IMG/VR virus record: IMGVR_UViG_3300042554_000432
Location: 1 to 41,634 of that record
Reading direction: 5' to 3' (one strand)
Length of the DNA stretch: 41,634 bases
Source: a virus
Taxonomy: Duplodnaviria > Caudoviricetes
Shown: one piece after another, positions 1 to 37,897 of the stretch
Layout: the number at the start of each line of letters is the position of its first letter
How positions within the stretch are numbered: the first letter of the stretch is position 1
Notes under the pieces: generated by a model
What the model was told of the DNA's origin: nothing
What the model saw: only the letters and a program-made list of their open reading frames with translations
Database searches by the model: none
Translations under genes and position numbers: made by a program

Positions 1-1050
1 CGCTACGCCTTGCTTTCCCTAGAGGCAGCAACCAAGGCGGTACAAGCACCTATTGCTATGCCTACTGATGTACAGGAGTTGGCTCTTGGACCTGATGCAA
101 TTATGCGCTCATCAAAGCCTAACGAAATTCGTAGAGTGCCACTTGAAATACCATCAGGCGCTTTTGCTCAACAAGGAGTTCTTGAACAAGAACTGCGTTT
201 AGGTTCTCGTTATCCTGAGAGCCGTACAGGTAACCTTGATGCTTCAATCGTTACAGGTCGTGGAGTTCAGGCTCTTATGTCGGGCTTTGATACACAGATT
301 AAAACTGCACACTCTATGTTTGCCCGTGCCTTTGTTGAACTTATTGGCATTTGCTTTAAAGTTGATGAAGCAGTATTTGGTAATGTTGAAAAAGAATTAA
401 AGGGCAACTATCACGGAACCCCTTATGCAATTAAGTACAAGCCACTCCGCGACATTGATGGTGACCACACCGTAGATGTTCAATACGGATTGATGGCAGG
501 ACTTGACCCTAACCGAGCATTGGTATTTGGTTTGCAGGCTCGCGGTGATAAATTGATTTCACGCGACTTCCTACGCAGACAAATGCCATTTTCATTTAAT
601 GCTACCCAAGAGGAAGCAAAGGTTGATACTGAGGAATTGCGTGATGCAATGAAGCAAGCGATTGCTTCTTATGCACAAGCAATCCCAGCACTTGCATCCC
701 AAGGTCAAGACCCTAGTGAAATTTTAGTTGCTTTATCAGCGGTGATTAACGCTCGTCAAAAGGGAACTTCTATTGAAGTTGCTGTGGCTGATGCGTTTAA
801 ACAACCTGAGGTTCCCACACCTGCGGGCATGACTCCTGAAACAGTAAGTCCTGATGGCATGCCAGTTGAGGGTCCCGCAGGTGCTGGGCAACTCCCTGCT
901 GGATTAAGTCCAACTGGTCGGATGGTAGGCACGGCTGCGGGTCAAATCGCACCGGGTGGTCGCCCTGATGTTCAGTCACTTTTAGCAAGTCTAACTCAAC
1001 AAGGAGAGCCTAATTTACAGGCTAGCCTAATTCGGCGAGTACCAGCGTAA
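1..1050 (+). CDS. Portal protein, 3' part (variant duplicate of 39779..41596)
   Basis: About 95% amino-acid identity to the C-terminal 347 aa of the ORF that follows the terminase; truncated at the window edge. Confidence 0.85.
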   Translation, partial: RYALLSLEAATKAVQAPIAMPTDVQELALGPDAIMRSSKPNEIRRVPLEIPSGAFAQQGVLEQELRLGSRYPESRTGNLDASIVTGRGVQALMSGFDTQIKTAHSMFARAFVELIGICFKVDEAVFGNVEKELKGNYHGTPYAIKYKPLRDIDGDHTVDVQYGLMAGLDPNRALVFGLQARGDKLISRDFLRRQMPFSFNATQEEAKVDTEELRDAMKQAIASYAQAIPALASQGQDPSEILVALSAVINARQKGTSIEVAVADAFKQPEVPTPAGMTPETVSPDGMPVEGPAGAGQLPAGLSPTGRMVGTAAGQIAPGGRPDVQSLLASLTQQGEPNLQASLIRRVPA

Positions 1051-1088
1051 AGGGGGTGAATAAATGAAGGGATACAGCAAGAAGCCAG
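1..1088. repeat. Imperfect terminal overlap, copy 1 (matches 40544..41634)
   Basis: Both copies start CGCTACGCCTTGCTTTCC and end CAGCAAGAAGCCAG; many substitutions and one 3-nt indel. Confidence 0.95.
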
Positions 1089-1225
1089 CGAACCAAGGTT
1101 CAGCAGGTAAGGCTAATGTACAAAAGCCACGCGTAGATGGCACTCCAAAAAAGGGCAATCCTAAAGGCGGAACGCTTTTTCTTAGCAAGCAACCAAAAGG
1201 AACCCGCGGTTCCAAGAACAAGTAA
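1064..1225 (+). CDS. Small Lys/Gly-rich basic protein (53 aa, MKGYSKKPANQG...)
   Basis: Manually translated; GGGGGTG RBS upstream; below the ORF-track cutoff. Confidence 0.65.
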   Translation: MKGYSKKPANQGSAGKANVQKPRVDGTPKKGNPKGGTLFLSKQPKGTRGSKNK

Positions 1226-1330
1226 GAACTTCATTGATGCAGCCTGAGTACGCTGTTTAAACAAAACTACTCATAATTTTAAAAGATGCACTTTAGATAC
1301 GCTCTTAAAGCGAAATGAAAGCAGGATAAA

Positions 1331-1804
1331 ATGGCAGACCAGCGCGGTGGATACAGGAAACCGACCAACCCTGCACCAGTTTCAGGACCCGGTGCGCTCT
1401 CTCAAAGAACGGATGGACAACCTGCACGATACACAGCAGGCATGGCTTATGGTGACGGGCAGGACTTTTATGACCTACAAACCCAAGCGCCCATGAGTGG
1501 TGGACAATCCAGCCCTGCATCTTTACCTTTAAATCAAGGCTCGGCTTTAGCAGGTTATGCAAAGCCAGTTGTTCCGTTAGACCAACCAACTCAATACCCT
1601 GAGGAACCAATTACTGCTGGACTTCCAATGGGTGCAGGTCCGGGACCGGAAGTGTTAACTTCCCCAGCAATGGTGGCTGCTCAAAACTCTGAGGATGTTG
1701 CAAGACTTATGGCTGTATTGCCAATCTATGCACGCATTGCTGAGTCACCAAATGCATCAAATGCTATGCGTAACTTCTACCGTTATTTACGGAGTCAAGT
1801 TTAA
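1331..1804 (+). CDS. Hypothetical virion-associated protein (Pro/Gly-rich)
   Basis: 157-aa ORF, AGGA RBS, stop overlaps the next start (TAATG). Confidence 0.75.
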   Translation: MADQRGGYRKPTNPAPVSGPGALSQRTDGQPARYTAGMAYGDGQDFYDLQTQAPMSGGQSSPASLPLNQGSALAGYAKPVVPLDQPTQYPEEPITAGLPMGAGPGPEVLTSPAMVAAQNSEDVARLMAVLPIYARIAESPNASNAMRNFYRYLRSQV

Positions 1805-4800
1805 TGTCTTGGTTTAACCGTATTGGCGACATAGCCAAAGGTGTTGTTAATTTTACAGGCATACCGGGACTAATCCACGACATTGCTACATCAGGTTCTA
1901 ATGATGACCCTTGGTATGTAGATGCCGTTAATGTTGCCAAAGGTGTAGTCAAAGTTGGAACCACGCCAGTTCGTGGTGCAGTCAAGGGACTGTTTGCTGT
2001 TGGCGAAGCATCTTATGAACTCGGTGGAAAAGCCCGTGAAAACATTGTTGAAAAGGGACTTGAACTGCCCTTTATGTATAACCGATACAAAAATGTTGGT
2101 GAAACATACGAACAGTATCAACAGCGTGTAGCCGAAAACAAAGACGAAATTTCTATGGGTCAAGTTGCCCTATCTTTGTTTGGTCCGGGCAAGAACGCAG
2201 CAGAAAATTCAGGTTGGTTTCACGATTTTACTGACCGTAACTTAAAGTTTTTATCAGCAGGATTTGATTTATTCAATCCTGAGGACAGAGAAGCAGCATT
2301 TAACGACCAGTTTATTGGTAAGTTTGCTAGCGGTTCTGTTGATTTTACTTCATCTATGACCATTGACCCATTGTTCTTTGCAGGGTTTGCTGGTAAAGGT
2401 TTATCTATTGCATCCCGTGCGCCAATGGCAGCAGGGTTGATGGGTGCTGGTCGTACTGGCATTGCAGCAATTCCGGGTTCTGCAACCCGCAAAGTTTTTG
2501 GTAAGTTAGCAATGACTACCGAAGGAGTTGATGACCTATTAGGTCGCGCTCTTAAAGGTGAAGGTCGTGCTGTTGAGGATGTTCAATTCCTTGCACGCTC
2601 TGATGCAAAGACTCAGTATGAATACTGGGCTAAAAAGCGTGTTACACATCCTGACGCTATGGCTTATTTATTTGGTCGTGCAACTACTGAGCAAGAAGTT
2701 GTTGATACTTTCCGTGCTGTAATTGGTACAGACAAGCAAGCAATGGCAGCAATCGCAAAAGTTGATGACGAAGCAGCACTTGTTCTTGATAACTTAACAG
2801 ATACACCAAAGCCTTTCCGTGAAGCACTTAACGGACAACTTGATGGTGATTTAATTGTTAACCCTGAATACAACAGGGCAATTACAACTTATTTAGATAA
2901 TCTTGTTAAAGAGGATGACCGCTTCCGTATTGCATTAGAAAAAGTTTCTACTGGTGGCAATGAGTTCCGTGGTGGAACTTTTGCCCGTGGACCACTTTCA
3001 GGTTATGCACGCAATCGTGCAGAAAAGTTAGCAAAGACTTTTGCTGACCCTGAAATTACAATGATACAAAAAACAAGCCTTCACCCAGCCGTAATGGTTG
3101 TTAATTACATGAAGGGTAAGTCAGAATTTTTTACTAAGTTCCGCCCAAGTGGTGTGTTCAGAGTAAATGATGGTGACTCCTATGTAGAAATGAACGCATT
3201 TTTGCGTGAGGCTGTTGAACTTTCAGGTGGAACATTTGCAGCAAAGGCTGGCACATACGCTGACCAGTATCTTGCAGCAGCCACCGAAGGCGAGCGTTTA
3301 AACATTATTAAGTTGGCTGAAAAAGATGCTTTGGGAATTATTGCCCCAAACATGACTCAGCAACAGATTGAAAAACTATACGCAATTTTTGATTACCGCC
3401 GTGCTAAGACACTTAAAGAACACAAAGACCGTGGCTTCTTGTCTATCTTTACAGAGAACGGTCCAGTAATTGCTAAGTTCCCACAGTTAGAGCGTGAGTC
3501 TGCAAACATTGTTATTGCAATGGATTTACGCCGACTAAAGGATGGCATTGACTCTTACGAGCGTGTGCTTCCGGGTATTCTTTCAGGTATTGACCCAACA
3601 GAGATTGCTGTTCGTGGACAAAAGTTTATGAACACCCTTGATAATGTTAACGACATTTTCAAGACATCTGTTCTTATGCGCCTAGGTTACACGGTTCGTA
3701 ACCTTACAGAAGCACAACTATCTATGATGGCTAAGGCTTTTGCTTTGCCAGCAGCGGTAGCAGTTGGTGGTCCTTCGGCTGTACAAAGATTTTTACAAAA
3801 CCGTAAGGCTGGCTTTACCCGTCTTATTGATAATGTTGAAGTCTTGGCTGGTCGTAAAGACGACATCAATGTTTTGCGTGATGAAGTTGCAAAACTTCAA
3901 GACATGCTTCGTGGTCTTGACCTTTCTCGTAAAGGTCTTGCAGGAGAAATCCGTACCCGCATGGCAGACATTGAGCGTGGTGGCGAGCGCCTAATTGCTA
4001 ACTACATTGCTGCTGAAAAGGCTAAAGGCAATCTAGTTGGTGTTGAGGAAGCAGCAGCCATTGTTCTACCTAGAGAACTTAAAAGACTTCGTTCTGCCTT
4101 GGCAGAAGCAGAAGCCGTTACTTTGTATCATGGTTCAACAGCAGATGCATTTGAGTTTGACCCAACAAGACCGCTATCTGCATCTACTAATGCACAAATT
4201 GCTGACCGTTATGCAACACAAGAATTTAGTTTTGGATTAGAGCGTTACATCTCAGATACTGGGCGACCAGTTCCACTAAGAGTTGTTACTAGAAAAGGTA
4301 TTGAACAAGCACCTGCTGGACAAGCGGGAACAAAAGAAGTTTTTGAACAAATGCCAACCAGCGAATTTCCCGCTGTTAAAGCATGGGTTACTGGCGTTGC
4401 TGGTATTGAACAAAACATTTTGCGTGGTATGACTTTTGATGAAGTTACAGGAGAGTTAGAAAAATTAAATCCTTCTGCTCAAAAGTGGGTTGGTGAATTA
4501 AAGCGTACTATTGAACGCTCTATAATTAAAGAACCAACAACAGTTTATCGTATTACAGATAATACTGCTTTTTACAAAACACCAGTTGGTGGGATTGTTA
4601 CAGAACCAGCCTTTGTTGCTACAAGTAAAAATTCAGACATACCTGAAAGTCGTGCATTTTTTCTTGAAATTAAATTGCCTAAAAATCATCCGGGCTTAGA
4701 CATTAAAAGAACTTATGATGATTTTGCTGCCTATGACCCAACTATTAAAAGGGCAAGTAGTTGGCAAGATGCTCAAAGAGAAGCAGAAATTTTATTACCA

Positions 4801-7800
4801 CCGGGAAGTAAGTTTAAAATTATTTCTCGCACAATTCCTGAGGCAAATGCTGACGGTGTTTTACAAGGTCCAACTAAAATTGTTCTTGAAGCCATTGCGC
4901 CTAAAGTTCAAAGAAAACCATTTCCTGCTAAATTAGAAAATGCTGCTGAACTTATGAAAGCAGACATGATTGATGCTACTCGCGCTGGAAACATTGTTGA
5001 AGTTCGCAAAGGCACAAGCAAAGGTTTTGTTAAGGTTGATGAGGATAGAATACGCGACTTTAATCCTAAAGAATTAGAGCGTGCAGTATTCCGTGTCCGC
5101 CGTGATGGTGGAAGCGTTACACCAATGCGTGTTTACGGTGATGCTCTTTATCTCACTAAATGGTCAGACATCCCATTGGATGTACGCAAAGAAGTATTTG
5201 GTGGAGATGTAAAGGTTTGGCGTGCTTGGGTAAAGAGTAAGGGTTGGCAAGACCAAAACTCTCCTTTGTATAATTACCTTCGTCAAAACAATTTTGGTCG
5301 TGCAGTTGTAGGTGATGACCGCCGTGCAGGTGGACTATCACACATTGTTCTACCTGAGGCAGTAGGTGAAGCAGGTCGTGGTCGTGAAGTTACTAAGTTA
5401 AGTCGCGCTCAGATTGAAGCAGCACAAGCAGAAGCAGATGCTGCATTAGACATTGCTCAGCCATTGCAGACAACTAAAGAACGCCGTGTTGCTCGTACAC
5501 AAGTACGCCGTAAGGAAAAGTCACGCCGTACTCGCCCAGCAGTTTCTCCTTACTATGATGATGAGAACCTAATTGCCATGATTAACAATGGCGTTGAGGA
5601 TGCTGCTGCTAACCTTGGTCGTTCATACGCAGAGGTTAATGCTCAACTTGACGACATGATGGCTCGCCTAGGCGCTCGCATTAGTCAATCAGAACAAATG
5701 GCTGTTAAGTCTAAGGTTGGCTATGGAACTTTCACACATGAAGCCAATGGTCAGTCATACGAAGTTGATGAAGTATTTAACAATGCATCTTGGATGCTTG
5801 CTCGTACATCATCTGAACAAACATGGGGCAGCATTATTGGAAGCCAGCAAATGGCGTTCCTTGCAGGTCCCGGTTCAAGAGCAATGCGACCAGTTAAGCC
5901 CGGCGACCCACGCTACTTTGAAGCATGGGCTGGTGTATTAAACCTACACTTCCGCGACCCTGAAACTGGGGTTATGGACCCAATCGTAAGTCGTATTCTT
6001 GACGGTGCAACTAATGATGAGATTTTAGGATTTTTAACTAGAACTCGTAGTGGTCGTATCTATGCTAATAACACATACACAATTCCCGGCAAGGGACTTG
6101 GGTTTGGTAAGTTAAAGGCTGGCGAGGAAAACGATTACCTATTAACTCGTATTAGCGATACACGCAATGCTGTTAAGTTGTATGTTCCTGATGAGGACAC
6201 AGCACTTATGCTTCGTGCTGCTAAAGAGGATGGCAAGCCACTTACAGGCGGAGATGTAGAAGTATTTTTACTTAACCGCTTTGGCGCTAACCCTGAGAAC
6301 TTACCTGAGATTAACGGTCTGCTTGTAACTACAAGTAAAGAATACCGTGACCAAGAGCGTATTGTGGACATGGTTAATCGCCGTGTTATGCGTTTCTTAG
6401 GTTCACTTCCTGAGGATACCTTTGCTCGTCACCCATTAGTAAATGTTGTTTACAGAGAAAATGTTAGACGAAACATTGATGGAATTGCACAGGCTAGAGG
6501 TACTGACCGACTAACAGGTGATGAAATCGCCCGTGCCGAGCGTGCTGCCCGTGAGGAAGCCCGCCGTGAAGTAGAGCGTACTTTGTTTACTATTGTTCGT
6601 AGAACTGGTGCATCATCAAGCCAAGTAATGCGCTTGTTATTCCCGTTCTATGCAGCCTATGAAAATACCTTAATGCGTTGGGGTGGCATTGTTGCCGAGA
6701 ACCCACAGGTAGTTACAACTGCTGCTAGAACTATTGCACAAATTGTTAATGGACAGTTGATAGTTGACCAAGAAGGCAACCGTATTACCGACACCAAGCA
6801 ACTTGGTGAAGGCGGTATGGCTAACCTTGTGGTTCAAGTACCTGATGCATTTATCAAAGCATTGCCGGGTGAGTGGCAAGATGTGGCTGAGAACGCGTTT
6901 AAACGAGTTAACATCCCATTATCAAGCCTTGATGTTATTACCCAAGGTCAAGCAGGTAATCCGGGATTTGGTCCTTACGCCGTATTCCCAGCCTACTTAA
7001 TCTTGCGCCAACGCCCTGAGTTTGAGGAAGCCTTTGCACCGCTATTCCCAGCAGGTATGCCTAATAGCGCATCTGAGATTTTTCTACCTAGCACAGTACG
7101 CCGTCTGAAAACCATGTGGTCTAAGGATGAGATGTATGTTCGTACCTTCAATCAAATGTTGCGTTATGAAACATACAACTACAACACAGGCAAGCGCCAA
7201 GATGTGCCAACAGTAGATGAAATTACCAGCAAAGTTAACAAGTTCTACATGCTTCGTTCTTTGACTGCAATTTCTGCACCGTTTGCTATCTCTCCTGAGG
7301 TAGATTTCTACCAGCAAGTTTTCCGCCAGTTTCAAAATCAATACACAGAACCCGGCGAAGCAGAAGCCAAGTTCTTTGAGATGTATCCTGACTTCTTTGA
7401 AGCCACAGTATCTCTATCTAAGAACCCCGGCAGCCTTGAAGCCAACCTAGATACCGTTCGTAACCTTCGTAAGTTCAGCGGTCTAATGGCAACAGCAGAG
7501 GCAAAGGGTGAGCCTGAACTTATGGGATGGCTTGCTAATGATTTTGACGGTAAGTATGACTTCTCGCAGGCTGCCTATCAATGGCAGTATCGCACAGGTT
7601 CATACCCCGGTTCGGCTAACACCTATCGTCAAAACCGTAACCCAGCAGAACTTATTAAGGATGCTAACTTAAAGCGTGGCTGGACTGAATACCGTAAGAT
7701 ACAAGATGTTATTGATGCATTTAAAATTCAAAACGGTATCGGCAGTAATCGTGACCCATTGCTAGAGCAATACAATAATGCTAAACGCCAATGGCTTGAT

Positions 7801-8154
7801 TACATGGCACAGAATAACCCTGATTGGTACGCAGCATACATGTCGCCTGACCGTGGCAAGTACATGAAGCGTGCTGATGTTCTTGAACAAGCGTTCCAAA
7901 ATAAAGCATGGATGGCACAAAATGGTGACCGTGCAGTTGTAAAGGCTGTTGCTTTGTACTTGGATGCTCGTAAAAAGATTGGTCAGGCATTACTACAACG
8001 CGACCAAATGGGCGGTTCACGCTCATTGGATGCAAACTCTAATGATGATTTAGCAGAACTTTGGGATAAGTTTGTTACCCAACTTGGTGCTGAGTCACCT
8101 GAATTTAGCGACTTCTATAACCGATACTTTCCAAACGACCCGGTGGTGATTTAA
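1804..8154 (+). CDS. Large internal virion/ejection protein with an embedded ADP-ribosyltransferase domain
   Basis: 2116 aa; position between portal and capsid genes; ART motifs VYR(916), FVATS, REAEILLP (E993/E995). Confidence 0.75.
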   Translation: MSWFNRIGDIAKGVVNFTGIPGLIHDIATSGSNDDPWYVDAVNVAKGVVKVGTTPVRGAVKGLFAVGEASYELGGKARENIVEKGLELPFMYNRYKNVGETYEQYQQRVAENKDEISMGQVALSLFGPGKNAAENSGWFHDFTDRNLKFLSAGFDLFNPEDREAAFNDQFIGKFASGSVDFTSSMTIDPLFFAGFAGKGLSIASRAPMAAGLMGAGRTGIAAIPGSATRKVFGKLAMTTEGVDDLLGRALKGEGRAVEDVQFLARSDAKTQYEYWAKKRVTHPDAMAYLFGRATTEQEVVDTFRAVIGTDKQAMAAIAKVDDEAALVLDNLTDTPKPFREALNGQLDGDLIVNPEYNRAITTYLDNLVKEDDRFRIALEKVSTGGNEFRGGTFARGPLSGYARNRAEKLAKTFADPEITMIQKTSLHPAVMVVNYMKGKSEFFTKFRPSGVFRVNDGDSYVEMNAFLREAVELSGGTFAAKAGTYADQYLAAATEGERLNIIKLAEKDALGIIAPNMTQQQIEKLYAIFDYRRAKTLKEHKDRGFLSIFTENGPVIAKFPQLERESANIVIAMDLRRLKDGIDSYERVLPGILSGIDPTEIAVRGQKFMNTLDNVNDIFKTSVLMRLGYTVRNLTEAQLSMMAKAFALPAAVAVGGPSAVQRFLQNRKAGFTRLIDNVEVLAGRKDDINVLRDEVAKLQDMLRGLDLSRKGLAGEIRTRMADIERGGERLIANYIAAEKAKGNLVGVEEAAAIVLPRELKRLRSALAEAEAVTLYHGSTADAFEFDPTRPLSASTNAQIADRYATQEFSFGLERYISDTGRPVPLRVVTRKGIEQAPAGQAGTKEVFEQMPTSEFPAVKAWVTGVAGIEQNILRGMTFDEVTGELEKLNPSAQKWVGELKRTIERSIIKEPTTVYRITDNTAFYKTPVGGIVTEPAFVATSKNSDIPESRAFFLEIKLPKNHPGLDIKRTYDDFAAYDPTIKRASSWQDAQREAEILLPPGSKFKIISRTIPEANADGVLQGPTKIVLEAIAPKVQRKPFPAKLENAAELMKADMIDATRAGNIVEVRKGTSKGFVKVDEDRIRDFNPKELERAVFRVRRDGGSVTPMRVYGDALYLTKWSDIPLDVRKEVFGGDVKVWRAWVKSKGWQDQNSPLYNYLRQNNFGRAVVGDDRRAGGLSHIVLPEAVGEAGRGREVTKLSRAQIEAAQAEADAALDIAQPLQTTKERRVARTQVRRKEKSRRTRPAVSPYYDDENLIAMINNGVEDAAANLGRSYAEVNAQLDDMMARLGARISQSEQMAVKSKVGYGTFTHEANGQSYEVDEVFNNASWMLARTSSEQTWGSIIGSQQMAFLAGPGSRAMRPVKPGDPRYFEAWAGVLNLHFRDPETGVMDPIVSRILDGATNDEILGFLTRTRSGRIYANNTYTIPGKGLGFGKLKAGEENDYLLTRISDTRNAVKLYVPDEDTALMLRAAKEDGKPLTGGDVEVFLLNRFGANPENLPEINGLLVTTSKEYRDQERIVDMVNRRVMRFLGSLPEDTFARHPLVNVVYRENVRRNIDGIAQARGTDRLTGDEIARAERAAREEARREVERTLFTIVRRTGASSSQVMRLLFPFYAAYENTLMRWGGIVAENPQVVTTAARTIAQIVNGQLIVDQEGNRITDTKQLGEGGMANLVVQVPDAFIKALPGEWQDVAENAFKRVNIPLSSLDVITQGQAGNPGFGPYAVFPAYLILRQRPEFEEAFAPLFPAGMPNSASEIFLPSTVRRLKTMWSKDEMYVRTFNQMLRYETYNYNTGKRQDVPTVDEITSKVNKFYMLRSLTAISAPFAISPEVDFYQQVFRQFQNQYTEPGEAEAKFFEMYPDFFEATVSLSKNPGSLEANLDTVRNLRKFSGLMATAEAKGEPELMGWLANDFDGKYDFSQAAYQWQYRTGSYPGSANTYRQNRNPAELIKDANLKRGWTEYRKIQDVIDAFKIQNGIGSNRDPLLEQYNNAKRQWLDYMAQNNPDWYAAYMSPDRGKYMKRADVLEQAFQNKAWMAQNGDRAVVKAVALYLDARKKIGQALLQRDQMGGSRSLDANSNDDLAELWDKFVTQLGAESPEFSDFYNRYFPNDPVVI

Positions 8155-13580: not shown

Positions 13581-13610
13581 GGGTGGCGGGTGTTTAAACG
13601 CCCGCTACCC
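13581..13610 (+). terminator. Hairpin after the capsid gene, centred on GTTTAAAC
   Basis: GGGTGGCGGGTGTTT/AAACGCCCGCTACCC; only a weak U-tract follows. Confidence 0.5.
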
Positions 13611-19164: not shown

Positions 19165-19185
19165 TCAATAAGGAGTTTAAACACT

Positions 19186-25013: not shown

Positions 25014-25859
25014 TTGACCCTAGAAATTAAGACGGGTAAATCCTATGTTAGCCATAGTGGTATCTCAACTTGGCTAAACTGTGGATGGCAATTCTATCTA
25101 TCCCGAATACAAAAAGTTCCTGAAAACCCATCCTACTGGTTAGTAGGTGGTTCGTCTGTGCATGAAGCAACAGAAGTGTTTGATGTTACAGGCACAGAGA
25201 ACTTTAATTCCACCATTGCTTTTAACGAAGCATGGAAACGCAACTATGAAAGAAGCGACAACGGCATGCCGTTCCGTGCTGGTGGTCGCTCTAGCAAAGC
25301 GTATCCAAATGGTGAGGATGCAACTTGGTGGTTAACCGAAGGACCTAAAATGGTTGACCGCTGGGTACAGTTCCGCAATGACTCAGGCTACCAACTGTTT
25401 AAACTACCTGATGGTCGCCCTGCTATTGAAGTTGAGATGAACCAAGATGTTAATGGAGTGCCAGTTAAGGCAGTCCTTGACCGCTTGTTTGTTACTCCCA
25501 ACGGGGAACTAATTGTTGTGGACATCAAGACAGGAAGCAGAGAACCAGCAAGCAAAACTCAAATGGGTATCTACGCAATCATGGTAGAAAAAACATTTGG
25601 TGTTCGCCCTGTTGGTGGTGCTTACTGGATGTCCCGCACAGGTGAACTGACGGACACGGTAAACCTAGATAATTTCACAGAAGCACGCCTAGGCTCATGG
25701 GTTAAAAACTTTGAGAAGGCAGTAATGAACGACATCTACATCCCAGCACCCGGATTTATGTGCGGGACATGCGGTGTAAACGCTGCATGCTATGTTGTTA
25801 ATGGCAAGGACTCACACAAATACCCCGAAATAACAGAAGGAGAAGCAAGTGATGAGTAA
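25014..25859 (+). CDS. RecB/Cas4-like PD-(D/E)XK exonuclease
   Basis: SHS..WLNC, GSSVHEA, VLDRL..VVDIKTG, QMGIY, C-terminal CGTC..C. Confidence 0.85.
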   Translation: MTLEIKTGKSYVSHSGISTWLNCGWQFYLSRIQKVPENPSYWLVGGSSVHEATEVFDVTGTENFNSTIAFNEAWKRNYERSDNGMPFRAGGRSSKAYPNGEDATWWLTEGPKMVDRWVQFRNDSGYQLFKLPDGRPAIEVEMNQDVNGVPVKAVLDRLFVTPNGELIVVDIKTGSREPASKTQMGIYAIMVEKTFGVRPVGGAYWMSRTGELTDTVNLDNFTEARLGSWVKNFEKAVMNDIYIPAPGFMCGTCGVNAACYVVNGKDSHKYPEITEGEASDE

Positions 25860-26298
25860 TGAAGCACCATACCAAGTGAACTTAAAGACACCAAAAGGTT
25901 CACTACTCAATCTCAGAGCATGGGATGAGCAACAGTTAGACACAATCCTTGATGGGTTGGAAGTGCGTATGCAACGCATCTTGCAACTAGAGGAAACGAT
26001 TGATGAGTTGCATAAACTCAGCAGCAACCCTGCTGCACAAGCAATTCAAACTCTACAAAATGCTGGACTAAATCCAGTACCAGTAGCACCAGCACAACCT
26101 ATTGGAAATCAATGGGGCGCTGGTACACAAGGTGCAGCAGCACAAGCACCAGCCCCAGCAGGCTCACCTGTTTGCGACCACGGATTGCCAATGCGATTTG
26201 TAGCAGCAGGTATTAGCAAGGCTGGCAAGCCATACAAGGCGTTCTACGCATGCCCTAACGCCCGCGAAAGTGCGTGCAATAAGAAGGTCGCTGCGTAA
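25852..26298 (+). CDS. Hypothetical protein with C-terminal Zn finger (possible ssDNA-binding/recombination role)
   Basis: CDHG..GKPY..FYAC..C; located between the exonuclease and helicase. Confidence 0.55.
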   Translation: MSNEAPYQVNLKTPKGSLLNLRAWDEQQLDTILDGLEVRMQRILQLEETIDELHKLSSNPAAQAIQTLQNAGLNPVPVAPAQPIGNQWGAGTQGAAAQAPAPAGSPVCDHGLPMRFVAAGISKAGKPYKAFYACPNARESACNKKVAA

Positions 26299-27110: not shown

Positions 27111-27535
27111 GTGAGGAAAGTTTAAACGATAAGTTTGCACCTAAGATAAAAGTTTCACAAGAGTTGTTAAGGCAGATGATTGATAACGCACCTATCTCAG
27201 ATGAGATGCGTAACAAGATAGTAGAACAACTGCCAATGATTGCTGAAAACTTAGATGATGCAACCCGTAGGATTTACGACCCACAAAAGATTTGGTTTGA
27301 GTCTATTCAGTATGCAGATTATGTTGACCAGTTAGCAGAACACCTAAGGGATGCAGTAATGGATGACCATGGTGACGACTGCAAGATGGAGATAGCCGTT
27401 GGATTGCACACCATGTCGGGTATTTGGAAAGCCATGGCTGAAAATGCTATGACCATACTAGACGACATGAAAATTAAATCAGAGATGTACGACTTTGATG
27501 AAGTCATTATCGGGATAAAGGAAAAAGATGCATAG
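27107..27535 (+). CDS. Hypothetical acidic helical protein
   Basis: 142-aa ORF coupled to its neighbours. Confidence 0.7.
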   Translation: MSEESLNDKFAPKIKVSQELLRQMIDNAPISDEMRNKIVEQLPMIAENLDDATRRIYDPQKIWFESIQYADYVDQLAEHLRDAVMDDHGDDCKMEIAVGLHTMSGIWKAMAENAMTILDDMKIKSEMYDFDEVIIGIKEKDA

Positions 27536-28274
27536 TAAAAATGAAACACTATCTATTGGTTGGTGCGATAATGGCATGTCTGACGGTAAGTTTACCGAAG
27601 GACTTGTGTACACAATTATTATGGGTCAAGACCCAAAGAACATACAAGTACATAATGCTATCCGTGTTCAAGGTAATCAGATTGGTAGGCAGCGACAAAG
27701 TTTATTTGACCTATGGGCTGACCAAGTAAAAACCGATTGGTTGCTATGGGTTGACTCAGACATTGTGCTTACCCAAGATGTATTAAAAAAGTTATGGGAT
27801 ACAGCAGATAAGTTAACACGACCAGTTGTTACTGGTGTTTACTTTATCTCTAAAGAAAATGAACAGGCATTGATGATGCCTATGCCATGTATTTTTAATG
27901 AAACAGGACATGAGTTTACTATTAACTACATACATCCATTGCCTGAAAATGAAATCATTAAGGTTGACTGTGCAGGTATGGGCTTAGCCTTAATGCACAA
28001 GAGCGTTGTTCCTAAACTGCGTGAAGTCTGCCCTGATTATTCTTTGTTTGCAGAGAAGGAAGGTTTAAACAATCAGTTTGTAAGTGAGGACATTGTGTTC
28101 TTTAGATACTTAAAGAAGGCAGGTGTTCCTGTTCATACCCATACTGGCGCTCGCGTTAAACACATGAAGCGTTTTAGTTTGGATGAGAACTATTACAAAT
28201 TGTATTGGGGTTCCGTTTACGAAGCCGAAGCAAGAAAGGCAAAGGAAAATGAACAACCAAGCGAACAAGCGTAG
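27528..28274 (+). CDS. GT-A fold (family 2-like) glycosyltransferase
   Basis: WLLWVDSD (DxD), GMGLALMH, SEDIVF, V-x-H-x-K. Confidence 0.75.
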   Translation: MHSKNETLSIGWCDNGMSDGKFTEGLVYTIIMGQDPKNIQVHNAIRVQGNQIGRQRQSLFDLWADQVKTDWLLWVDSDIVLTQDVLKKLWDTADKLTRPVVTGVYFISKENEQALMMPMPCIFNETGHEFTINYIHPLPENEIIKVDCAGMGLALMHKSVVPKLREVCPDYSLFAEKEGLNNQFVSEDIVFFRYLKKAGVPVHTHTGARVKHMKRFSLDENYYKLYWGSVYEAEARKAKENEQPSEQA

Positions 28275-28608
28275 GGGCGCAGCCTTTGAAATAGAACTGG
28301 CTGATTGGTTTATGACTCAGGGTTTAAACGCACAGCGCCTACCCCGTGCTGGTAGAAACGACATAGGGGATGTGTTCCTTCCTACGGCAAATGACTTTTA
28401 TGTTGTTGAAGCCAAAGCACCTAGAAGGGATGGTCGTATTGACCTGAGTGGGTGGCTACGAGAAGCCTATGTGGAAGCCGAGAACTATCGGATTGCCAAG
28501 AAGTTGGCGATAGCACCTAATCCATTGGTCATAATCAAGGCTGCCAACAAGGGTATTGGTGATGCTTATGTCGTACAAAAGTTGAGTGATGCCCTTGCAA
28601 AACTCTGA
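28249..28608 (+). CDS. Holliday junction resolvase (Hjc-type PD-(D/E)XK)
   Basis: KRRGAAFE, DIGDV, VVEAK; AAGGA RBS before ATG 28249. Confidence 0.8.
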   Translation: MNNQANKRRGAAFEIELADWFMTQGLNAQRLPRAGRNDIGDVFLPTANDFYVVEAKAPRRDGRIDLSGWLREAYVEAENYRIAKKLAIAPNPLVIIKAANKGIGDAYVVQKLSDALAKL

Positions 28609-28969
28609 TAAGAAGCACGACATTGTTACTGTACTGGAACATTACGGGTTTGAAATACCTGTCCGACATGGGTGGATTACCGTGCGTTGCGCCTTCCATG
28701 GTGATAGAGTTAAGTCAGCGCGTTTAAACATAGACAATGGTGGGTTCAGATGCTTCGGCTGCGAGATGGCTGGGGATGTGTATTCAATCATAATGAAAAA
28801 AGAAGGAGTTGGATTTCGTGAGGCTATCAAAATCGCAGAGAGAATTACTGGAATTAGCGAGTCAGAAGTACGCGGAAAACCTAGAACAAGTGATGCCTTA
28901 CCTGAGTCAGAGAGGTATCACCGAACAGACGGCGCGTATGTTCCGCCTAGGCTTCGTAAGCGAGCCTGA
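28589..28969 (+). CDS. DNA primase zinc-binding (CHC2) domain protein
   Basis: CAFHGD..SA..FRCFGC..GDVY. Confidence 0.85.
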   Translation: MPLQNSDKKHDIVTVLEHYGFEIPVRHGWITVRCAFHGDRVKSARLNIDNGGFRCFGCEMAGDVYSIIMKKEGVGFREAIKIAERITGISESEVRGKPRTSDALPESERYHRTDGAYVPPRLRKRA

Positions 28970-29432
28970 GATTGGTCACGAACCATACAGAGAAAAGTTA
29001 TCAATTCCTTATCTAACTCCAACAGGAGTTGTGGACATCCGCTTCCGTAGTTTAAACGGTGACGGACCGAAGTATCTATCAAGACCGGGGGCAAGTACAC
29101 ACATCTATAACATTGCTGCTTTATTCCAAGAGAGTGAGTTGCTTGTTGTATGTGAAGGTGAGATAGACACAATCATTGCTACACAAGCAGGCTTTAGTGC
29201 TGTCGGACTTCCGGGTGCTAATAACTGGAAACCATTTTATGGCAGAGTGCTAGCAGATTGGTCAAAGATTTTGTTGTTTTGTGATGGCGACAATGCTGGT
29301 CGTGAGATGGCAAAGAACTTATCCCGTGAACTAGACAATGTATTTCCCGTATTCATGCCTGAGGGGTGTGATGTTAATGATGTGTTCTTAAACGAGGGCG
29401 CAGACGGGCTACGAAAACGAGCAGGAGTTTAA
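28818..29432 (+). CDS. DNA primase catalytic (TOPRIM) domain protein
   Basis: YLSQRGI, IRFR, PKYL, VCEGEID, CDGDNAG, DVND; AAGGAG RBS before GTG 28818. Confidence 0.88.
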   Translation: MRLSKSQRELLELASQKYAENLEQVMPYLSQRGITEQTARMFRLGFVSEPEIGHEPYREKLSIPYLTPTGVVDIRFRSLNGDGPKYLSRPGASTHIYNIAALFQESELLVVCEGEIDTIIATQAGFSAVGLPGANNWKPFYGRVLADWSKILLFCDGDNAGREMAKNLSRELDNVFPVFMPEGCDVNDVFLNEGADGLRKRAGV

Positions 29433-29436
29433 ACAC

Positions 29437-30192
29437 ATGATTAAAAAAGTCGTGGTACTGAGTGACTATCAAGTACCTTATCAAGATAGAAAGGCAGTTG
29501 CTCTACTCCACGATTTCATTTGGGATTACAAACCCAATGAACTATGGATAGTTGGTGATTGGATTGACCAGCCTGAACCTAGCCGTTGGTCAAGGGGTAA
29601 TGCTGGCGAATACGCAAGAACATTACAGGCTTCCGTTAATGAAGCAACAGATTTACTTGCTGACCTACGCCACATCATGGGTCGCAGACCTATTCATTTT
29701 AAGACTGGCAATCACGACATAAGAGTTGAGAAGTATGTGTCGCAGTATGCGCCCGCACTACGCAGCCTTAGTAGTTTAACGCTAGAGGAAATGCTTGACC
29801 TTGACCGTTTAAACATTACATTGCACCGCAAGCCGGTAGAACTAGCACCGAACTGGTTGCTTGCTCATGGTGACGAAGGTGCTTTAAGTCGTATCGCGGG
29901 CGGAACCGCAATGAATTTAGCAAAACGCTTTGGCAAGAGTGTCGTCTGTGGACACACGCACCGTTTGGGTTTGCAAGCGTTTACAACATCAGTAAATGGA
30001 AAAGTGACGGAACAGTTGTATGGATTTGAGGTGGGAAACATGATGCGTTTAAACGCTGCCCACTATGTGGGCGGGTCTGCCAACTGGCAGCAAGGATTTG
30101 GTTTGTTAACAATCAAAGACCGTCAAGTATTTCCTACTCCTGTGTATCTACACAAGGGTCAATTCATAGTAAACAACAAGCATTATGCCTGA
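29437..30192 (+). CDS. Calcineurin-like metallophosphoesterase
   Basis: SDYQ, GDWID, GNHD, AHG, GHTH. Confidence 0.85.
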   Translation: MIKKVVVLSDYQVPYQDRKAVALLHDFIWDYKPNELWIVGDWIDQPEPSRWSRGNAGEYARTLQASVNEATDLLADLRHIMGRRPIHFKTGNHDIRVEKYVSQYAPALRSLSSLTLEEMLDLDRLNITLHRKPVELAPNWLLAHGDEGALSRIAGGTAMNLAKRFGKSVVCGHTHRLGLQAFTTSVNGKVTEQLYGFEVGNMMRLNAAHYVGGSANWQQGFGLLTIKDRQVFPTPVYLHKGQFIVNNKHYA

Positions 30193-30652
30193 GTTTTTGG
30201 AACCTATCCGTCAGGTGGGCGGTGACGGCAGACGGGAAACTGCTGCCGTTCACGCTTTATCTAGGCTCTATCCGAACTGGCGCTTCTACCCTACGCCTAG
30301 GTTTTACTTTACCGACTTTCATTTAACTTGGTTGCACGACAACGGTAGAGAGAACTACCTAGGCGACATAGAGATTAAGTGGCTGTCCATAGATAGCAGT
30401 ATCCCAGCAATCTTTCCATTTAATAAGTTGCAGCAGATGTTGATTAGCCCACCGTATTTAGATAACCCTGATACTTTCCACCGTATTTGTTTTAGATTTA
30501 CTGATGGAACTTTACTGATACCAGTTAAAGAACTGGCTGGGTTGATGCCTGAGTTTAATGTTCGCCACGATACCAATGAGCGCGACCTTGTGGTGCGAGT
30601 TAATGCTATGATGTTTAAACGCTACTGGTTAGATGTAGTGATAAAGGAGTAA
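30185..30652 (+). CDS. Putative PD-(D/E)XK nuclease-fold protein
   Basis: E helix, TDF..DIEIK, FRFTDG. Confidence 0.5.
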   Translation: MPEFLEPIRQVGGDGRRETAAVHALSRLYPNWRFYPTPRFYFTDFHLTWLHDNGRENYLGDIEIKWLSIDSSIPAIFPFNKLQQMLISPPYLDNPDTFHRICFRFTDGTLLIPVKELAGLMPEFNVRHDTNERDLVVRVNAMMFKRYWLDVVIKE

Positions 30653-30654
30653 GA

Positions 30655-31341
30655 GTGGAGTTAAAGGATGTTGAGCAGTCCCCGCTTTGGGATACCGTTT
30701 ACAAACTAGCGAGGACTGCATCTCGGTATTCAGCCAAGATAAACAAGAACGCTGTTTCTGTTGACGACATTTTTCAGCATCTAATCCTGTGGTCATTAGA
30801 ACATTGGCACAAGATTGATGAGTGGAACGAGCAAGAGTCTTTGCCGTTTAAACTACGCCGCACATTTGCTAACGAAGCGCAGAAGTTCGCAACGAAAGAG
30901 CGTGCCTTCAAGTCCCGTGTATCTACCAATGATTTCTTTTACTATACCCCTGCTATCTTGCATGAATTACTACGAGATGTATGGGATTACGAGGGCTGGT
31001 TAGATGCACCTGATTTGAGCAGCGAGTTCATAAGTAAGAGTGGCAAACCAAGCGAAGGTAATAACCGTATGGCTTTGCTGTCTGATGTAGCCAACGCATT
31101 GCATGGTTTAAACGAGCAAGACAAGAACCTTCTCCGGCAACGATACGCCAATGGTGGCATGGACTTTGATGTGTTAGCCGTTGTGTATGAGATGAGCGAG
31201 GAAGCATTACGCAAGCGTGTGCATAGGGCTATCAAGAAACTTCAAGATAGATTAGGTGGAGAGCCACCGATTTGGACAAACCGCAGGAGAACAGTCAAGT
31301 CAAACGCTCAGGCAAGAGCAGAAACACAGAGGCAAGAGTGA
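30655..31341 (+). CDS. Phage sigma70-family (ECF-like) sigma factor
   Basis: Region 2-like DDIFQ; region 4 HTH LNEQDK..RY..LA..SEEALRKRVHRAIKKL. Confidence 0.75.
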   Translation: MELKDVEQSPLWDTVYKLARTASRYSAKINKNAVSVDDIFQHLILWSLEHWHKIDEWNEQESLPFKLRRTFANEAQKFATKERAFKSRVSTNDFFYYTPAILHELLRDVWDYEGWLDAPDLSSEFISKSGKPSEGNNRMALLSDVANALHGLNEQDKNLLRQRYANGGMDFDVLAVVYEMSEEALRKRVHRAIKKLQDRLGGEPPIWTNRRRTVKSNAQARAETQRQE

Positions 31342-31538
31342 AAGACTTTGGGAGAGCATCCGTTAATGTTGGTTTAAACAAGTTGTATGCCTTTGGTTTA
31401 GGCTTTGATTACTACCCAGTTGTTGAGATGATAGAGGATACCAATGATGCATTAGTCCTTGCCCGTGCTTTGCATTTAGATTTTCTTTTCTTTTTTATTC
31501 AGATAACAGTCTATCCGAAAGTGAGATGGTACGAATAA
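31338..31538 (+). CDS. Hypothetical protein
   Basis: GTGA overlap with the sigma gene stop; TAATG coupling downstream. Confidence 0.5.
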   Translation: MKDFGRASVNVGLNKLYAFGLGFDYYPVVEMIEDTNDALVLARALHLDFLFFFIQITVYPKVRWYE

Positions 31539-32071
31539 TGATTATCGGATTATCGGGCTATGCCCAATCAGGTAAAGATACAGTTGCAGAACTATTGTGT
31601 TTAAACTATGGGTTCAAACGCATTTCATTTGCGCTACCTATGCGTGATGCTGTCTATACATTGAACCCTTTTCTTGAAAGTGGTAATCGTGTTGCAGATT
31701 TAGTTGATGAGTATGGTTGGGATGTAGCCAAGGGCAATGCGGAAGTCCGTAGGTTGCTGCAAGTATTTGGAACTGATGTTGGTCGTGAATTATTTGGTGA
31801 AACATTTTGGATTGACCAAGCGTTTAAACGAGCAGACGAATACCAGCGAGTAGTATTTTCTGATGTGCGTTTCCCTAATGAAGCCAAGGCTATTCAAGAT
31901 AAAGGTGGTGATGTATGGCGTATCAATCGTCATAACCACGCACCAGTTAATCATCACATCTCAGAGCATGCAATGGATAATCATTTGTTTAAACATGTAA
32001 TCTACAATGATGGAACTCTTGATGAATTAAGTGATGAAGTCTTTATGCTTGCTAAAGAACTAGGGCTATAA
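31538..32071 (+). CDS. Deoxynucleoside monophosphate kinase
   Basis: IIGLSGYAQSGKDT, SFA, RRLLQVFGT, SDVRFPNE, HISE. Confidence 0.9.
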   Translation: MIIGLSGYAQSGKDTVAELLCLNYGFKRISFALPMRDAVYTLNPFLESGNRVADLVDEYGWDVAKGNAEVRRLLQVFGTDVGRELFGETFWIDQAFKRADEYQRVVFSDVRFPNEAKAIQDKGGDVWRINRHNHAPVNHHISEHAMDNHLFKHVIYNDGTLDELSDEVFMLAKELGL

Positions 32072-32114
32072 AAGGAACAACACCCGCTGGGACTGGAACC
32101 ATTGGGTGTTGTTC
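32068..32114 (-). terminator. Intrinsic terminator after whiB
   Basis: GAACAACACCC/GGGTGTTGTTC 11-bp stem, followed by CTTTT on the minus strand; between convergent operons. Confidence 0.7.
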
Positions 32115-32127
32115 AGGGTAAAACTTA

Positions 32128-32475
32128 TCAGATTAAATGCTTGCTTGCAAGTGATGGGTCAGCAACTCCAATCCTTTGAGCGTGTCGTATCCGCCTTCTA
32201 TCATGGGGGCTAGTGCCTGCCCAAATCCCTTCTCGTTCATGGCACAACGCCCACTCTAAACACATGGCTTTAACTGGACAATCACCACACATCCGTTTAA
32301 ACAACGCTCGCTGGTCTGATGTTAGTTCATTGTTCTCAGGATAAAACAATTCCGTATCAATCCCCACACAATTACCCTTCGCAAACTCGGTTGAGTTATA
32401 CGAAAGATAATTGTATGAAAGGTCTGCTATTTCTTTGCTTGCTATTACTCTATGATGTTGTGGTTTAAACGACAT
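32128..32475 (-). CDS. whiB: WhiB-family Fe-S transcription factor
   Basis: C..ELFYP..CGDCPVKAMC..GIWAG; start uncertain. Confidence 0.9.
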   Translation of the reverse strand: MSFKPQHHRVIASKEIADLSYNYLSYNSTEFAKGNCVGIDTELFYPENNELTSDQRALFKRMCGDCPVKAMCLEWALCHEREGIWAGTSPHDRRRIRHAQRIGVADPSLASKHLI

Positions 32476-34179: not shown

Positions 34180-34210
34180 ATTATCTCATGCCGTATTCGT
34201 GTTAAGTCAA
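34180..34210 (-). promoter_or_regulatory. Possible sigma70-type promoter
   Basis: TTGACT (34210-34205) and TGn-GATAAT (34185-34180); 19-bp spacer is long; AT-rich upstream. Confidence 0.4.
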
Positions 34211-34474
34211 GCACATTTAAAAAAAATTCATAACAATTTTGTTATCTTTGTTTAAACATTATTAGCACTCTCACCCCGGCTTTGCTAACTGGTAAGCGTT
34301 TAAACATTTACCATGCCACCACCACCGCCACCGCCACCTAGTTGGAATACGACACGCGTTTAAACACTTGGCTTGTGCCATGTGCTAGACTCACTTTTGT
34401 TTTGCTAAAGCAAAACAAAAGCGGGGCAAATAGGACATCTGTTTAAACACTTTAATTATCCACAACTTTTACAC

Positions 34475-34510: not shown

Positions 34511-34522
34511 TGGTATCGCTGT

Positions 34523-35323: not shown

Positions 35324-35352
35324 AATTTTTTCCAGTCCTTTCGTTGATGTTA

Positions 35353-35677: not shown

Positions 35678-35679
35678 GT

Positions 35680-35835: not shown

Positions 35836-35855
35836 GGTTCCAGTCCTTTCGTTTA

Positions 35856-35930: not shown

Positions 35931-35937
35931 TGCCCGC

Positions 35938-36672: not shown

Positions 36673-36674
36673 GA

Positions 36675-37217
36675 TTAGCACACCACCATTTCTGCGTTGC
36701 ATGCTGGGCAGATAGGGCAGCCGTGGTTGTCCACGGTTGCACGGCTAACACGGCAGATGTAGTTGTCGTTTAAACAAGCAACCTTAATCAAGCGGGTTGT
36801 TTGTTTTTTGCGGTCAGGGATTGTGATTGCAGCGTGTGGATAATCAGGCATGCGCTCAGCGATTGTCGCTGCCCATTGTGGCAGCGTTGAGCCGTTTAAA
36901 CCGACACGGCTTAGGGCTGCCTTGTAATCCCTGCCCTGCTTGAAATCACCAGTTGCAGCAGCAACCAGCAACGGCATCACCAAACCGATAACGGCTGATT
37001 TCTCAGCGATTGTTGGTGAAACAAAAATTTCTGCGTTGAACTCATCTGATGCTGCTGGTGGGATGAGTTGAGCGCCGACCTGATTTCTTTTGCCTTGCTG
37101 GGCTGGGAACCCACAAGACAATTTCACGGCAGGTTCCTCATCTGCCATGTCTAATCTGCTGCTGATTTTTGGCAACGCTGATGCTGCCAATTTTTGTAAC
37201 CATTGTTCACGGTTCAT
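36675..37217 (-). CDS. SprT-like protein lacking HExxH, with C-terminal Zn ribbon
   Basis: MNREQWL..SCGFP..EIFVSP..KKQTTRLIKVAC..CPIC; MPLLVA occupies the expected HELxH position. Confidence 0.6.
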   Translation of the reverse strand: MNREQWLQKLAASALPKISSRLDMADEEPAVKLSCGFPAQQGKRNQVGAQLIPPAASDEFNAEIFVSPTIAEKSAVIGLVMPLLVAAATGDFKQGRDYKAALSRVGLNGSTLPQWAATIAERMPDYPHAAITIPDRKKQTTRLIKVACLNDNYICRVSRATVDNHGCPICPACNAEMVVC

Positions 37218-37271
37218 TTGTTTTGCCTTTCCAGTCTAGGGTTTAAACCCAGTTGTTTAAACCACTATCCG

Positions 37272-37301
37272 ATTATAGGCACACAATTTTTGAAAGGTCA
37301 A
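37272..37301 (-). promoter_or_regulatory. Strong sigma70/SigA-type early promoter
   Basis: TTGACC (37301-37296), 18-bp spacer, TATAAT (37277-37272); A/T tracts upstream resemble an UP element. Confidence 0.8.
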
Positions 37302-37359
37302 CACCATTTTGCAAAAAACTTTAAATTTTTTTTTGAGACAAAACATCTCACTATTTGAG

Positions 37360-37526
37360 ATGCCATTGCCCGTGCTGGATTGCCCTGCCTGCGCTGCGAT
37401 TGCCAGCGCCTGCCCTGCCTGCCCTGCCCTGCCTTGTTGTGTGGTGTGCGCTAGTAGCAGCAACAAGCCGTGCCAGCGCTGCGCCATCCCTAGCGCTGCC
37501 AGCCCGCTGCGTGTGCAGCCTGCTGC
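37360..37526. repeat. GC-rich low-complexity TGCC(C)/GCTGC tract
   Basis: For example TGCCCTGCCTGCCCTGCCCTGCC at 37411-37433; GC content far above the genome average. Confidence 0.6.
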
Positions 37527-37897
37527 GTTTAAACAAAAAGCCAGCGAGTGAAGGGGTCATTTGACCCCAGCATTATTAAAATCGCTGCGTATGTGTATGT
37601 GTGTATCCACACACATAACTTTGCTAGCCCTGAAAATGGGGGGCTGACCAGCACTTTTGCCCCATTTGGGGGCAATTACGCTGCCTACGGAAAAAAAGTT
37701 TAAACATTTGTGTCCAATTACATGCCATTGGACACCTATTAGTAAGTGAAAGGCGTAATCTATGCAGCCTTTCACGCATAAGCAGGAAACCCCTATCGGG
37801 TTTCCCTAGGCATACCCCTAACCTACGGCTTATGCCTTCGGTTAGGATAAGTGAGTTTTAGCCCAAGACTCACCACAATCGGTCTTGGAGAAACGCT

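Follow-up and report, generated by a model that had tools for sequence, protein, structure and literature searches.

The HIP1 element of cyanobacteria is an octameric palindrome that occurs chromosome-wide and is linked to a methyltransferase, and it is not known to have a reader protein. IncP plasmids carry palindromic OB sites near promoters and in genes, which are recognized by an element-encoded regulator, KorB, a ParB-family helix-turn-helix (HTH) protein with a 13-bp site and a role in partition. In the temperate cluster A phages (L5, TipsytheTRex), one phage protein made of an HTH and a stoperator domain binds more than 20 asymmetric 13-mer sites that are oriented with transcription, blocks both initiation and elongation, and confers immunity (PMC9283540). 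ArdC of plasmid R388 combines a DNA-binding domain with a SPRTN-like metalloprotease binds single-stranded DNA (ssDNA) non-specifically, and counters type I restriction (PMC7213743). For the 'SprT-like protease' of phage clusters AZ, EH and EB, a role in SPRTN-like crosslink repair has been proposed (bioRxiv 10.1101/2025.05.26.655371). Here we describe a virus record of 41,634 nucleotides (IMGVR_UViG_3300042554_000432, analyzed at full length and called the window below) that hoards the 8-bp palindrome GTTTAAAC, a word that appears to be read by a zinc-ribbon protein encoded by the phage itself.

The initial annotation of the window had listed 57 start coordinates for the word, and each of them proved to be exact, with no copy missed.

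795..37705, unstranded: GTTTAAAC sites, the presumed binding sites of the reader protein, 57 copies.

It had estimated about 44% GC and about one expected copy; the measured GC content is 44.7%, Markov models of orders 0-3 give 0.9-2.1 copies, and order-3 simulations (n=300) gave a mean of 2.2 and a maximum of 7. One-mismatch neighbours of GTTTAAAC occur 0-4 times each, about as expected. Called genes make up 94% of the window, yet 15 of the 57 sites lie outside them, while 39 lie wholly within genes, where they are read as x-L-N or F-K, and 3 cross gene ends. When the codons were redrawn synonymously, about 3 sites were obtained (0.6+1.1+1.5) against the 39 observed (10+15+14). Moreover, the word fills 39 of the 46 places where the protein sequence permits it (10/12 in virion, 15/17 in replication and 14/17 in early genes). 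These counts support the earlier proposal that selection acts on the DNA word rather than on the protein. Protein sequences are even bent to the word, with 5.9 opportunities per 1000 aa in the orthologous early and replication proteins of 11 hoarding relatives, compared to 2.1 in relatives that have switched to another word (switchers, see below) and 1.4 in other non-hoarders. Some positions are retained across 60-80% protein identity, such as those in rusA (11/11 hoarders, 0/6 switchers) and primase (10/11 hoarders, 0/6 switchers); those in whiB and the glycosyltransferase turn over among relatives.

The genome-wide spread of the word is not uniform. Site density is strongly graded, from 0.65/kb at 1-24.5 kb through 2.1/kb at 24.5-32.1 kb to 4.4/kb at 32.1-37.8 kb, with zero copies at 37.8-41.6 kb (terminase, portal). 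It thus climbs toward the leftward early operon, and early genes are about 7-fold denser in sites than virion genes. DNA internalisation, one of the functions first suggested for the word, is disfavoured because the sites are densest at the end presumed to enter first. The flanks, described as unconserved, show a weak preference instead, with C or T at -1 in 86 of 114 half-sites and a weak consensus of YGTTTAAACR over the 57 sites. Gaps between sites are more even than chance at 28.0-32.5 kb (coefficient of variation (CV) 0.34, p=5e-5) and over the wider stretch at 28-37.7 kb (CV 0.49, p<5e-5).

27120..32470, unstranded: evenly spaced in-gene sites of the replication operon.

13592..13599, unstranded: GTTTAAAC at the centre of a hairpin behind the major capsid gene.

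In addition, the sites at 13882 and 29427 overlap stop codons, and the site at 19175 lies between a ribosome-binding site and a start codon.

A search for genes that co-vary with the word in related phages, a check put forward with the initial annotation, led to a gene in the early region.

36675..37217, minus strand: reader gene (phrog_6361), 180 aa, first of the leftward early operon.

GTTTAAAC was present in 26 of 37 related records, in 1 to 58 copies. Among relatives taken whole, the larger hoarder records hold 35-58 copies versus 0.6-1.6 expected, and four early genes accompany hoarding: the SprT-ribbon gene at 36675-37217 and those for an amidoligase, a glutamine amidotransferase (GATase) and DUF3846. 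Only the first of these is also found in hoarders outside the clade. It has a tblastn match in 28 of 30 hoarders (12 of which were selected for carrying it), profile searches find its ribbon in 30/30, and none of the GTTTAAAC hoarders that were taken whole among the relatives lacks it. A TerL tree (33 rows) indicates at least three changes of reader type, with the word following the reader; locus L133, for example, has a GTTTAAAC-type reader and is nested in a switcher clade with 100/100 support.

Several other candidates for the reader were discarded. The amidoligase, GATase and DUF3846 genes are clade-restricted and found in only 16/30 hoarders, the sigma-like and WhiB genes occur in non-hoarders, and the open reading frame (ORF) at 30185-30652 is missing from most hoarders. 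This last ORF is unannotated, has a PD-(D/E)xK-like motif, and is restricted to those closest relatives in which the phosphoesterase is present too. The ORF at 25849-26298 was ruled out as a cluster A repressor (PF25690). The co-occurrence of the amidoligase, GATase and DUF3846 genes with the word within the clade (16/30 hoarders, 0/18 non-hoarders) would fit a word that is the DNA-modification target of the neighbouring amidoligase and GATase, or of DUF3846. We consider this highly improbable: the other 14 hoarders have the ribbon but none of the three genes, which move together with the reader in one early module. The analysis turned up no DNA-modifying enzyme with a link to the word. Among more distant relatives, G008 (L049, L050) hoards TACGATAA/ATCGTACG and G032/G033 (L033, L034) hoard GTCTAGTA; no ribbon was detectable in these genomes, and other readers are possibly behind these words. 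Provirus relatives found via the phosphoesterase (L073-L082) have repeated TATGTCAA/AATGTCAA words, which we take to resemble cluster A stoperator cores.

The reader protein consists of a SprT-like (zincin) N-terminal domain and a C-terminal zinc ribbon.

36678..36824, minus strand: zinc-ribbon domain, the predicted sequence reader, with the motif QTTRLIK..C...CPIC (predicted local distance difference test (pLDDT) score 84.9).

The model of the whole protein (pLDDT 88.7) matches 4jiu (Z 7.7, root-mean-square deviation (rmsd) 2.7 over 87) and SPRTN 6mdx (Z 7.1, rmsd 3.6 over 93), both fold scores being middling, and a sequence search for solved relatives found none. PF10263 is detected in 25 of 81 aligned homologues, the window protein itself giving no match. 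Identity to the SprT-like protein of clusters AZ, EH and EB is about 30% over the full length. The HExxH motif is missing in the window protein and its GTTTAAAC clade and present in switchers and cultured carriers. Given this loss, the SprT-like domain of the window reader is predicted to be protease-dead, and protease activity is dispensable in the GTTTAAAC clade. The modelled ribbon has two strands and one helix. Fold searches with it returned generic zinc ribbons only (best Z 3.4), a result that shows neither novelty nor difference, and the comparison of the C-terminal zinc-binding domain with PF17283 gave an Atlas lead at 0.77 only. The ribbon occurs alone, without the SprT-like domain, in the hoarding relatives G019 (47 sites) and G026 (35 sites), and 1750 clusters (50% identity) contain it at E<=0.001.

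Natural variants of the ribbon go along with different words. Six relatives (TerL 81-84%) have, in the same place beside the terminase, an R-N-T-N-L paralogue with an intact HExxH, and they hoard TGWCTTAA (34-43 copies versus 2-7 in four controls) with the same density gradient. G024 retains 10 GTTTAAAC, of which nearly all fall beyond the early region, in line with an exchange of the module. Two plasmids with a [KR]-R-H ribbon contain 10 and 2 copies of CGTGTACACG, one of which lies upstream of the gene in each. The word appears to be determined by the residues that immediately precede the first cysteine: Q-[TSG]-T-R-[LM] is found with GTnTAAAC, R-N-T-N-L with TGWCTTAA, and [KR]-R-H with CGTGTACACG. 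For the plasmid variant, ATCGAGC was also considered as the word and rejected, being part of other repeats; it is CGTGTACACG that sits at the promoter of the gene. Genomes that purge TTAA use the one-arm variants GTGTAAAC or GTCTAAAC. In G023, for example, there are 0 TTAA (68 expected) and 36 GTCTAAAC, 11 GTGTAAAC, 6 GTATAAAC and 0 GTTTAAAC, and Maureen has 1 TTAA (31 expected). However, TTAA is not purged in 4A and G006, which use GTGTAAAC all the same, so avoidance of this tetramer is not the whole reason for the variant.

The association extends to unrelated elements. The reader protein matched 146 phage and 62 plasmid records, and words were counted over the whole record in 19. Of these, 14 have the window ribbon type (read directly in 12, assigned by profile score in VroomVroom and by annotation in Lizalica), and all 14 hoard the word. 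GTGTAAAC was found 17 times in Maureen, 22 in Zeta1847, 39 in UNTPL and 13 in 4A (expected <0.3 each), 25 in Lizalica and 18 in VroomVroom, while GTTTAAAC was found 16 times in Pan1, 17 in R5C, 34 in Venkman, 8 in Alexa, 7 in Arya, 4 in Persinger, 5 in pPDL2 and 4 in pDS4 (expected 0.02-1.7). The remaining 5 records, whose ribbons are altered or match weakly, contain 0-1 copies, and the Curtobacterium phages SpecialK, Buldak and CliffHanger, which are organised in an AZ-like manner, lack both the ribbon and the word. A survey of loci gave the same picture: 76 bacterial loci picked by ribbon motif contained 292 sites versus 29.5 expected (control words 80 versus 76.6), 27/76 being enriched individually at p<0.001 (control words 0/76), and 80 viral loci contained 540 sites versus 68.5 expected, 62/80 being enriched individually. 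The reverse search started from 124 loci with three clustered sites, 46 of which are stubs of ~1 kb or less. Of the 78 longer loci, 50 had the ribbon in the fetched stretch, and searching the complete records of 26 of the remaining 28 added 2 more (52/78 in total). Among the 24 negatives, 21 are under 90% complete, and in the 3 near-complete ones the sites form just a local cluster or a tandem repeat. The RNA runs yielded only contigs with small shares, which cannot show expression. Yersinia phage PY100 does not hoard PmeI sites (2 sites in 50 kb), and in the one paper found PmeI serves as a reagent only.

In three lysogens, with the prophage taken as the 40-47 kb around the gene and its ends not separately mapped, 26, 12 and 14 sites were counted around the gene versus 4, 2 and 9 in the rest of the genome (8.2, 6.4 and 3.7 Mb). 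This confinement bears on whether the word could have a host-driven or mutational origin, such as a HIP1-like repair bias or recognition by a methyltransferase or nucleoid protein of the host, in which case the ribbon would simply be a lineage marker. An octameric palindrome found in both coding frames is indeed what is seen for HIP1. Nevertheless, we regard such an origin as quite improbable, and it is largely refuted already. The word is nearly absent from the lysogen chromosomes, the same word is hoarded by phages of Actinobacteria and Alpha-, Beta- and Gammaproteobacteria, it turns non-palindromic where TTAA is purged (G023), and it changes with the ribbon and not with TerL.

A mobilizable islet with a reader gene was seen in Methylocella/Methylocapsa relatives (L493-L516, e.g. 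L514:6033-12116), in several copies per genome. It encodes a relaxase, MobC, an ankyrin-like protein, the SprT-ribbon protein and a coupling protein, and each copy has two GTTTAAAC.

The placement of sites at promoters provides the most direct hint of function. The predicted promoter of the reader gene is the best consensus match (11/12) in the 24.2-38 kb region, and two sites follow it.

37272..37301, minus strand: predicted early promoter of the reader gene, TTGACC-18-TATAAT.

37241..37262, unstranded: two tandem GTTTAAAC between the -10 box and the reader start codon, a predicted auto-operator.

34250..34448, unstranded: intergenic four-site cluster between a terminator (34511-34478) and an A-tract with TTGACT near 34210.

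In 22 of 26 carriers, the 130 bp upstream of the gene include a site (1-20% in random windows), and 56 of 68 bacterial loci have one inside the gene or next to it (14.8 expected). In relatives, it is found in the -35/-10 spacer, just before the -35, or just after the -10. Maureen has four promoter-like repeats that end in GTTTACAC directly after the -10 box, and in the Streptomyces locus L548 each of five promoter-like sequences beside the gene has a site next to the -35 or in the spacer. The early promoter-like sequences of L548, L045, L055 and related Streptomyces loci also share GTCAGCGAGA and TTCCAAAT, which suggests a second regulator there. Because the word co-varies with the ribbon, changes when the code residues change, is placed at the reader's own promoter and is confined to the element, we infer that the zinc-ribbon protein encoded at 36675-37217 very probably binds it. 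A sequence-specific protein on these sites, either phage- or host-encoded, had been part of the initial annotation; the results argue for the former.

What the bound protein would do is less certain. We tentatively favour, at somewhat short of an even chance, a repressor with operators and dispersed silencing sites, resembling the stoperator systems without being a member of that family. The reader would bind its own and other early promoters and block them, and the sites spread evenly within genes would damp transcription of the early and replication region. In the window phage, which is integrase-less, this could serve early-gene shut-off or a dormant carrier state in slow-growing hosts, while in temperate carriers it could serve lysogenic silencing. 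Promoter placement speaks for this choice, since no other direct functional signal was seen and it is encountered repeatedly in unrelated lineages. So does what the cluster AZ preprint reports: the immunity repressor of this cluster is unidentified, and Liebe, with a truncated SprT-like gene, makes clear plaques, whereas Maureen plaques are turbid (bioRxiv 10.1101/2025.05.26.655371). The reader may be the missing cluster AZ repressor.

Several observations weigh against repression. Liebe and Maureen differ at three further positions, which confounds the plaque comparison (bioRxiv 10.1101/2025.05.26.655371), and SpecialK keeps an integrase without having the reader gene. Neither an integrase nor a partition gene was found among the 58 window ORFs, such that there is no evident prophage state to silence, and early shut-off would not favour the filling of opportunities in virion genes. 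Most sites are in-gene, unoriented and evenly spread, contrary to a pure operator role. Inside ORFs, the asymmetric variants occur in both orientations without bias (UNTPL 13:16, Maureen 6:5, 4A 5:5), yet stoperators need orientation (PMC9283540). No site was found near the gene start in R5C, 4A, pPDL2 and pDS4, the two GTTTAAAC of the mobilizable islets lie mid-gene and 1.1-1.2 kb upstream, and the four-site cluster of the window is located ~40 bp upstream of the -35 hexamer of a second early promoter and not on it. Finally, a search of the EB phages Clayda5 and Dismas, which have a variant ribbon, found no hoarded word. As a separate observation on these variants, a 20-bp repeat with a ATACTTCTATTGTAGC core (6 copies in Clayda5) was seen ~100 bp upstream of the variant SprT gene (L252, L255) and may be either a promoter or an operator.

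A structural or replicative role could also be considered, with the protein bridging or looping sites to organise the genome inside the cell, or the 3-4 sites of the intergenic cluster acting as origin iterons. Such clusters recur in 14 other genomes, including that of the unrelated phage Venkman, the one in the window lies beside an AT-rich tract, the spacing of sites is even, and no DNA polymerase or known initiator was detected among the 58 ORFs. We nonetheless find this unlikely. The AT tract looks like a promoter UP element, the spacings within the cluster vary from 34 to 94 bp, and gaps between sites have no helical phasing (R=0.09). Furthermore, a polymerase is encoded by carriers like Maureen, in which the cluster is absent, and relatives without the reader gene share the same replication genes.

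Even spacing and the sites in late genes are better accommodated if the word is a protective self-mark, which we regard as the main rival reading, possible albeit doubtful. Shortly after entry, the same protein would coat the DNA of its element or tether itself to it, and so keep DNA-tracking enzymes or silencers of the host at bay (type I/III restriction, SMC-type scanners, Lsr2/H-NS filaments). Readers that retain HExxH would act through local proteolysis and those without it through steric blocking, and the promoter sites would serve autoregulation alone. A DNA word read by a protein, and not a chemical modification, might then mark mobile-element DNA as self through a ribbon of ~50 residues with a rewritable three-residue code. 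The ribbon could conceivably dock a SPRTN-like protease, or itself, at regular intervals on phage, prophage and plasmid DNA. Host defence proteins would perhaps be cleared or blocked there, and the chromosome, from which the word is almost absent, would be spared. Consistent with such a role, spacing is even over whole genomes (UNTPL CV 0.53, p<2e-4; Pan1 CV 0.49, p=0.003; and the window), which repression explains less well, and the word is near saturation even in virion genes, stop codons and hairpins. The lack of orientation bias in the asymmetric variants, the 12-26 sites in 40-47 kb of the lysogens against 2-9 in the remaining 3.7-8.2 Mb, the reader being the first gene of an early operon, and its presence on plasmids and mobilizable islets also fit. 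ArdC provides a precedent as a DNA-binding zincin whose anti-restriction activity survives active-site mutation, as described for that protein (PMC7213743). On the other hand, no candidate defence target was identified, and repeated placement on several core promoters is superfluous for a coat. Five 4-base palindromes are fully purged from the window and some phages purge TTAA, so that the mark is no replacement for site avoidance, and the cultured Planktophila phage record OX376641 has neither the gene nor the word. Self/non-self discrimination, as raised in the initial annotation, agrees with the prophage-confined word, whereas promoter placement favours gene regulation. In any case, repressor and protective roles are compatible and not exclusive.

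With respect to the phage itself, the window is a near-complete, podovirus-type genome of a BF-like podovirus, probably one infecting freshwater Actinobacteria. Its ends overlap imperfectly over 1.09 kb (1-1091 versus 40544-41634), with differences between the two portal copies, which likely reflects an assembly of two mixed strains; the GTTTAAAC at 795 reads GTTCAGAC in the second copy of the overlap. The capsid is nearest to OX376640/OX376641 (59%) and Streptomyces Beephvirinae (54%), and the terminase is 50% identical to that of Streptomyces Beephvirinae, with OX376640/OX376641 also among the closest. OX376641 is labelled LanE43-AprF5, the name under which a cultured Planktophila phage appears in a report that also describes whiB as a key actinophage indicator (PMC10202952). 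This kinship and the presence of whiB in the window point to a freshwater actinobacterial host. The scan of the 58 ORFs also found no methyltransferase, no ParA partner was found in the window, and bases 1-25,000 had no DNA-level match in the cultured phage collection. The palindromes ACGT, AGCT, ATAT, GATC and GGCC are absent from the window, TCGA occurs once, and CCTC just 5 times on the plus strand; relatives purge overlapping sets of 4-base words. The purged palindromes suggest heavy host restriction pressure. The 2116-aa virion protein (1804-8154) has an ADP-ribosyltransferase domain (PF03496, residues 890-1030) and is possibly injected to modify host proteins.

These results propose a target sequence for a widespread family of unknown function (1750 clusters). 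The three natural word-reader pairs would represent a small non-HTH DNA-binding module whose specificity has been rewritten by evolution. Selection on the DNA word is strong enough to alter protein sequence and to bypass a purged restriction site. The results also provide a direct candidate and operator for the cluster AZ immunity repressor that is testable in cultured phages, and, if the protective reading is true, a kind of self/non-self marking that involves no modified bases. A connection between word and protein has not been described in the searched literature, the coverage of which did not extend to subscription journals and the supplements of the AZ preprint. The main text of that preprint names no binding word ('taaac', 'operator' and 'palindrom' occur 0 times each) and refers to repeats near the gene as 'data not shown' (bioRxiv 10.1101/2025.05.26.655371).

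How, then, does the locus compare with described systems? The likeness to HIP1, an octameric palindrome strongly over-represented inside genes, is one of appearance only: the window word is restricted to mobile elements and follows a protein, and in the three lysogens there was no chromosome-wide spread outside the element. As with KorB and OB, palindromic sites are both promoter-near and in-gene, although no ParA partner was found in the window. Like ArdC, the reader belongs to a mobile element and joins a presumed DNA-binding domain to a SPRTN-like one whose catalysis is dispensable, but ArdC has the opposite domain order and no hoarded word, whereas here the ribbon co-varies with a double-stranded DNA word (PMC7213743). 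The SprT-like protein of clusters AZ, EH and EB (bioRxiv 10.1101/2025.05.26.655371) belongs to the same family as the window copy, which lacks HExxH. The cluster A repressor is similar in that one phage protein has more than 20 sites genome-wide, some of them on promoters, and in that the word differs between related phages (PMC9283540). However, its oriented 13-mer is replaced here by an 8-bp palindrome or an unoriented variant that lies mostly in genes, its HTH and stoperator domains by a zinc ribbon on a SprT-like domain, and its temperate phages by a range of carriers that also includes integrase-less phages and plasmids (PMC9283540). Integrase or partition genes, which go with cluster A systems, were found in carriers such as Maureen and not among the 58 ORFs of the window. 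On site symmetry, orientation and protein family, the system described here is thus distinct from that of cluster A.

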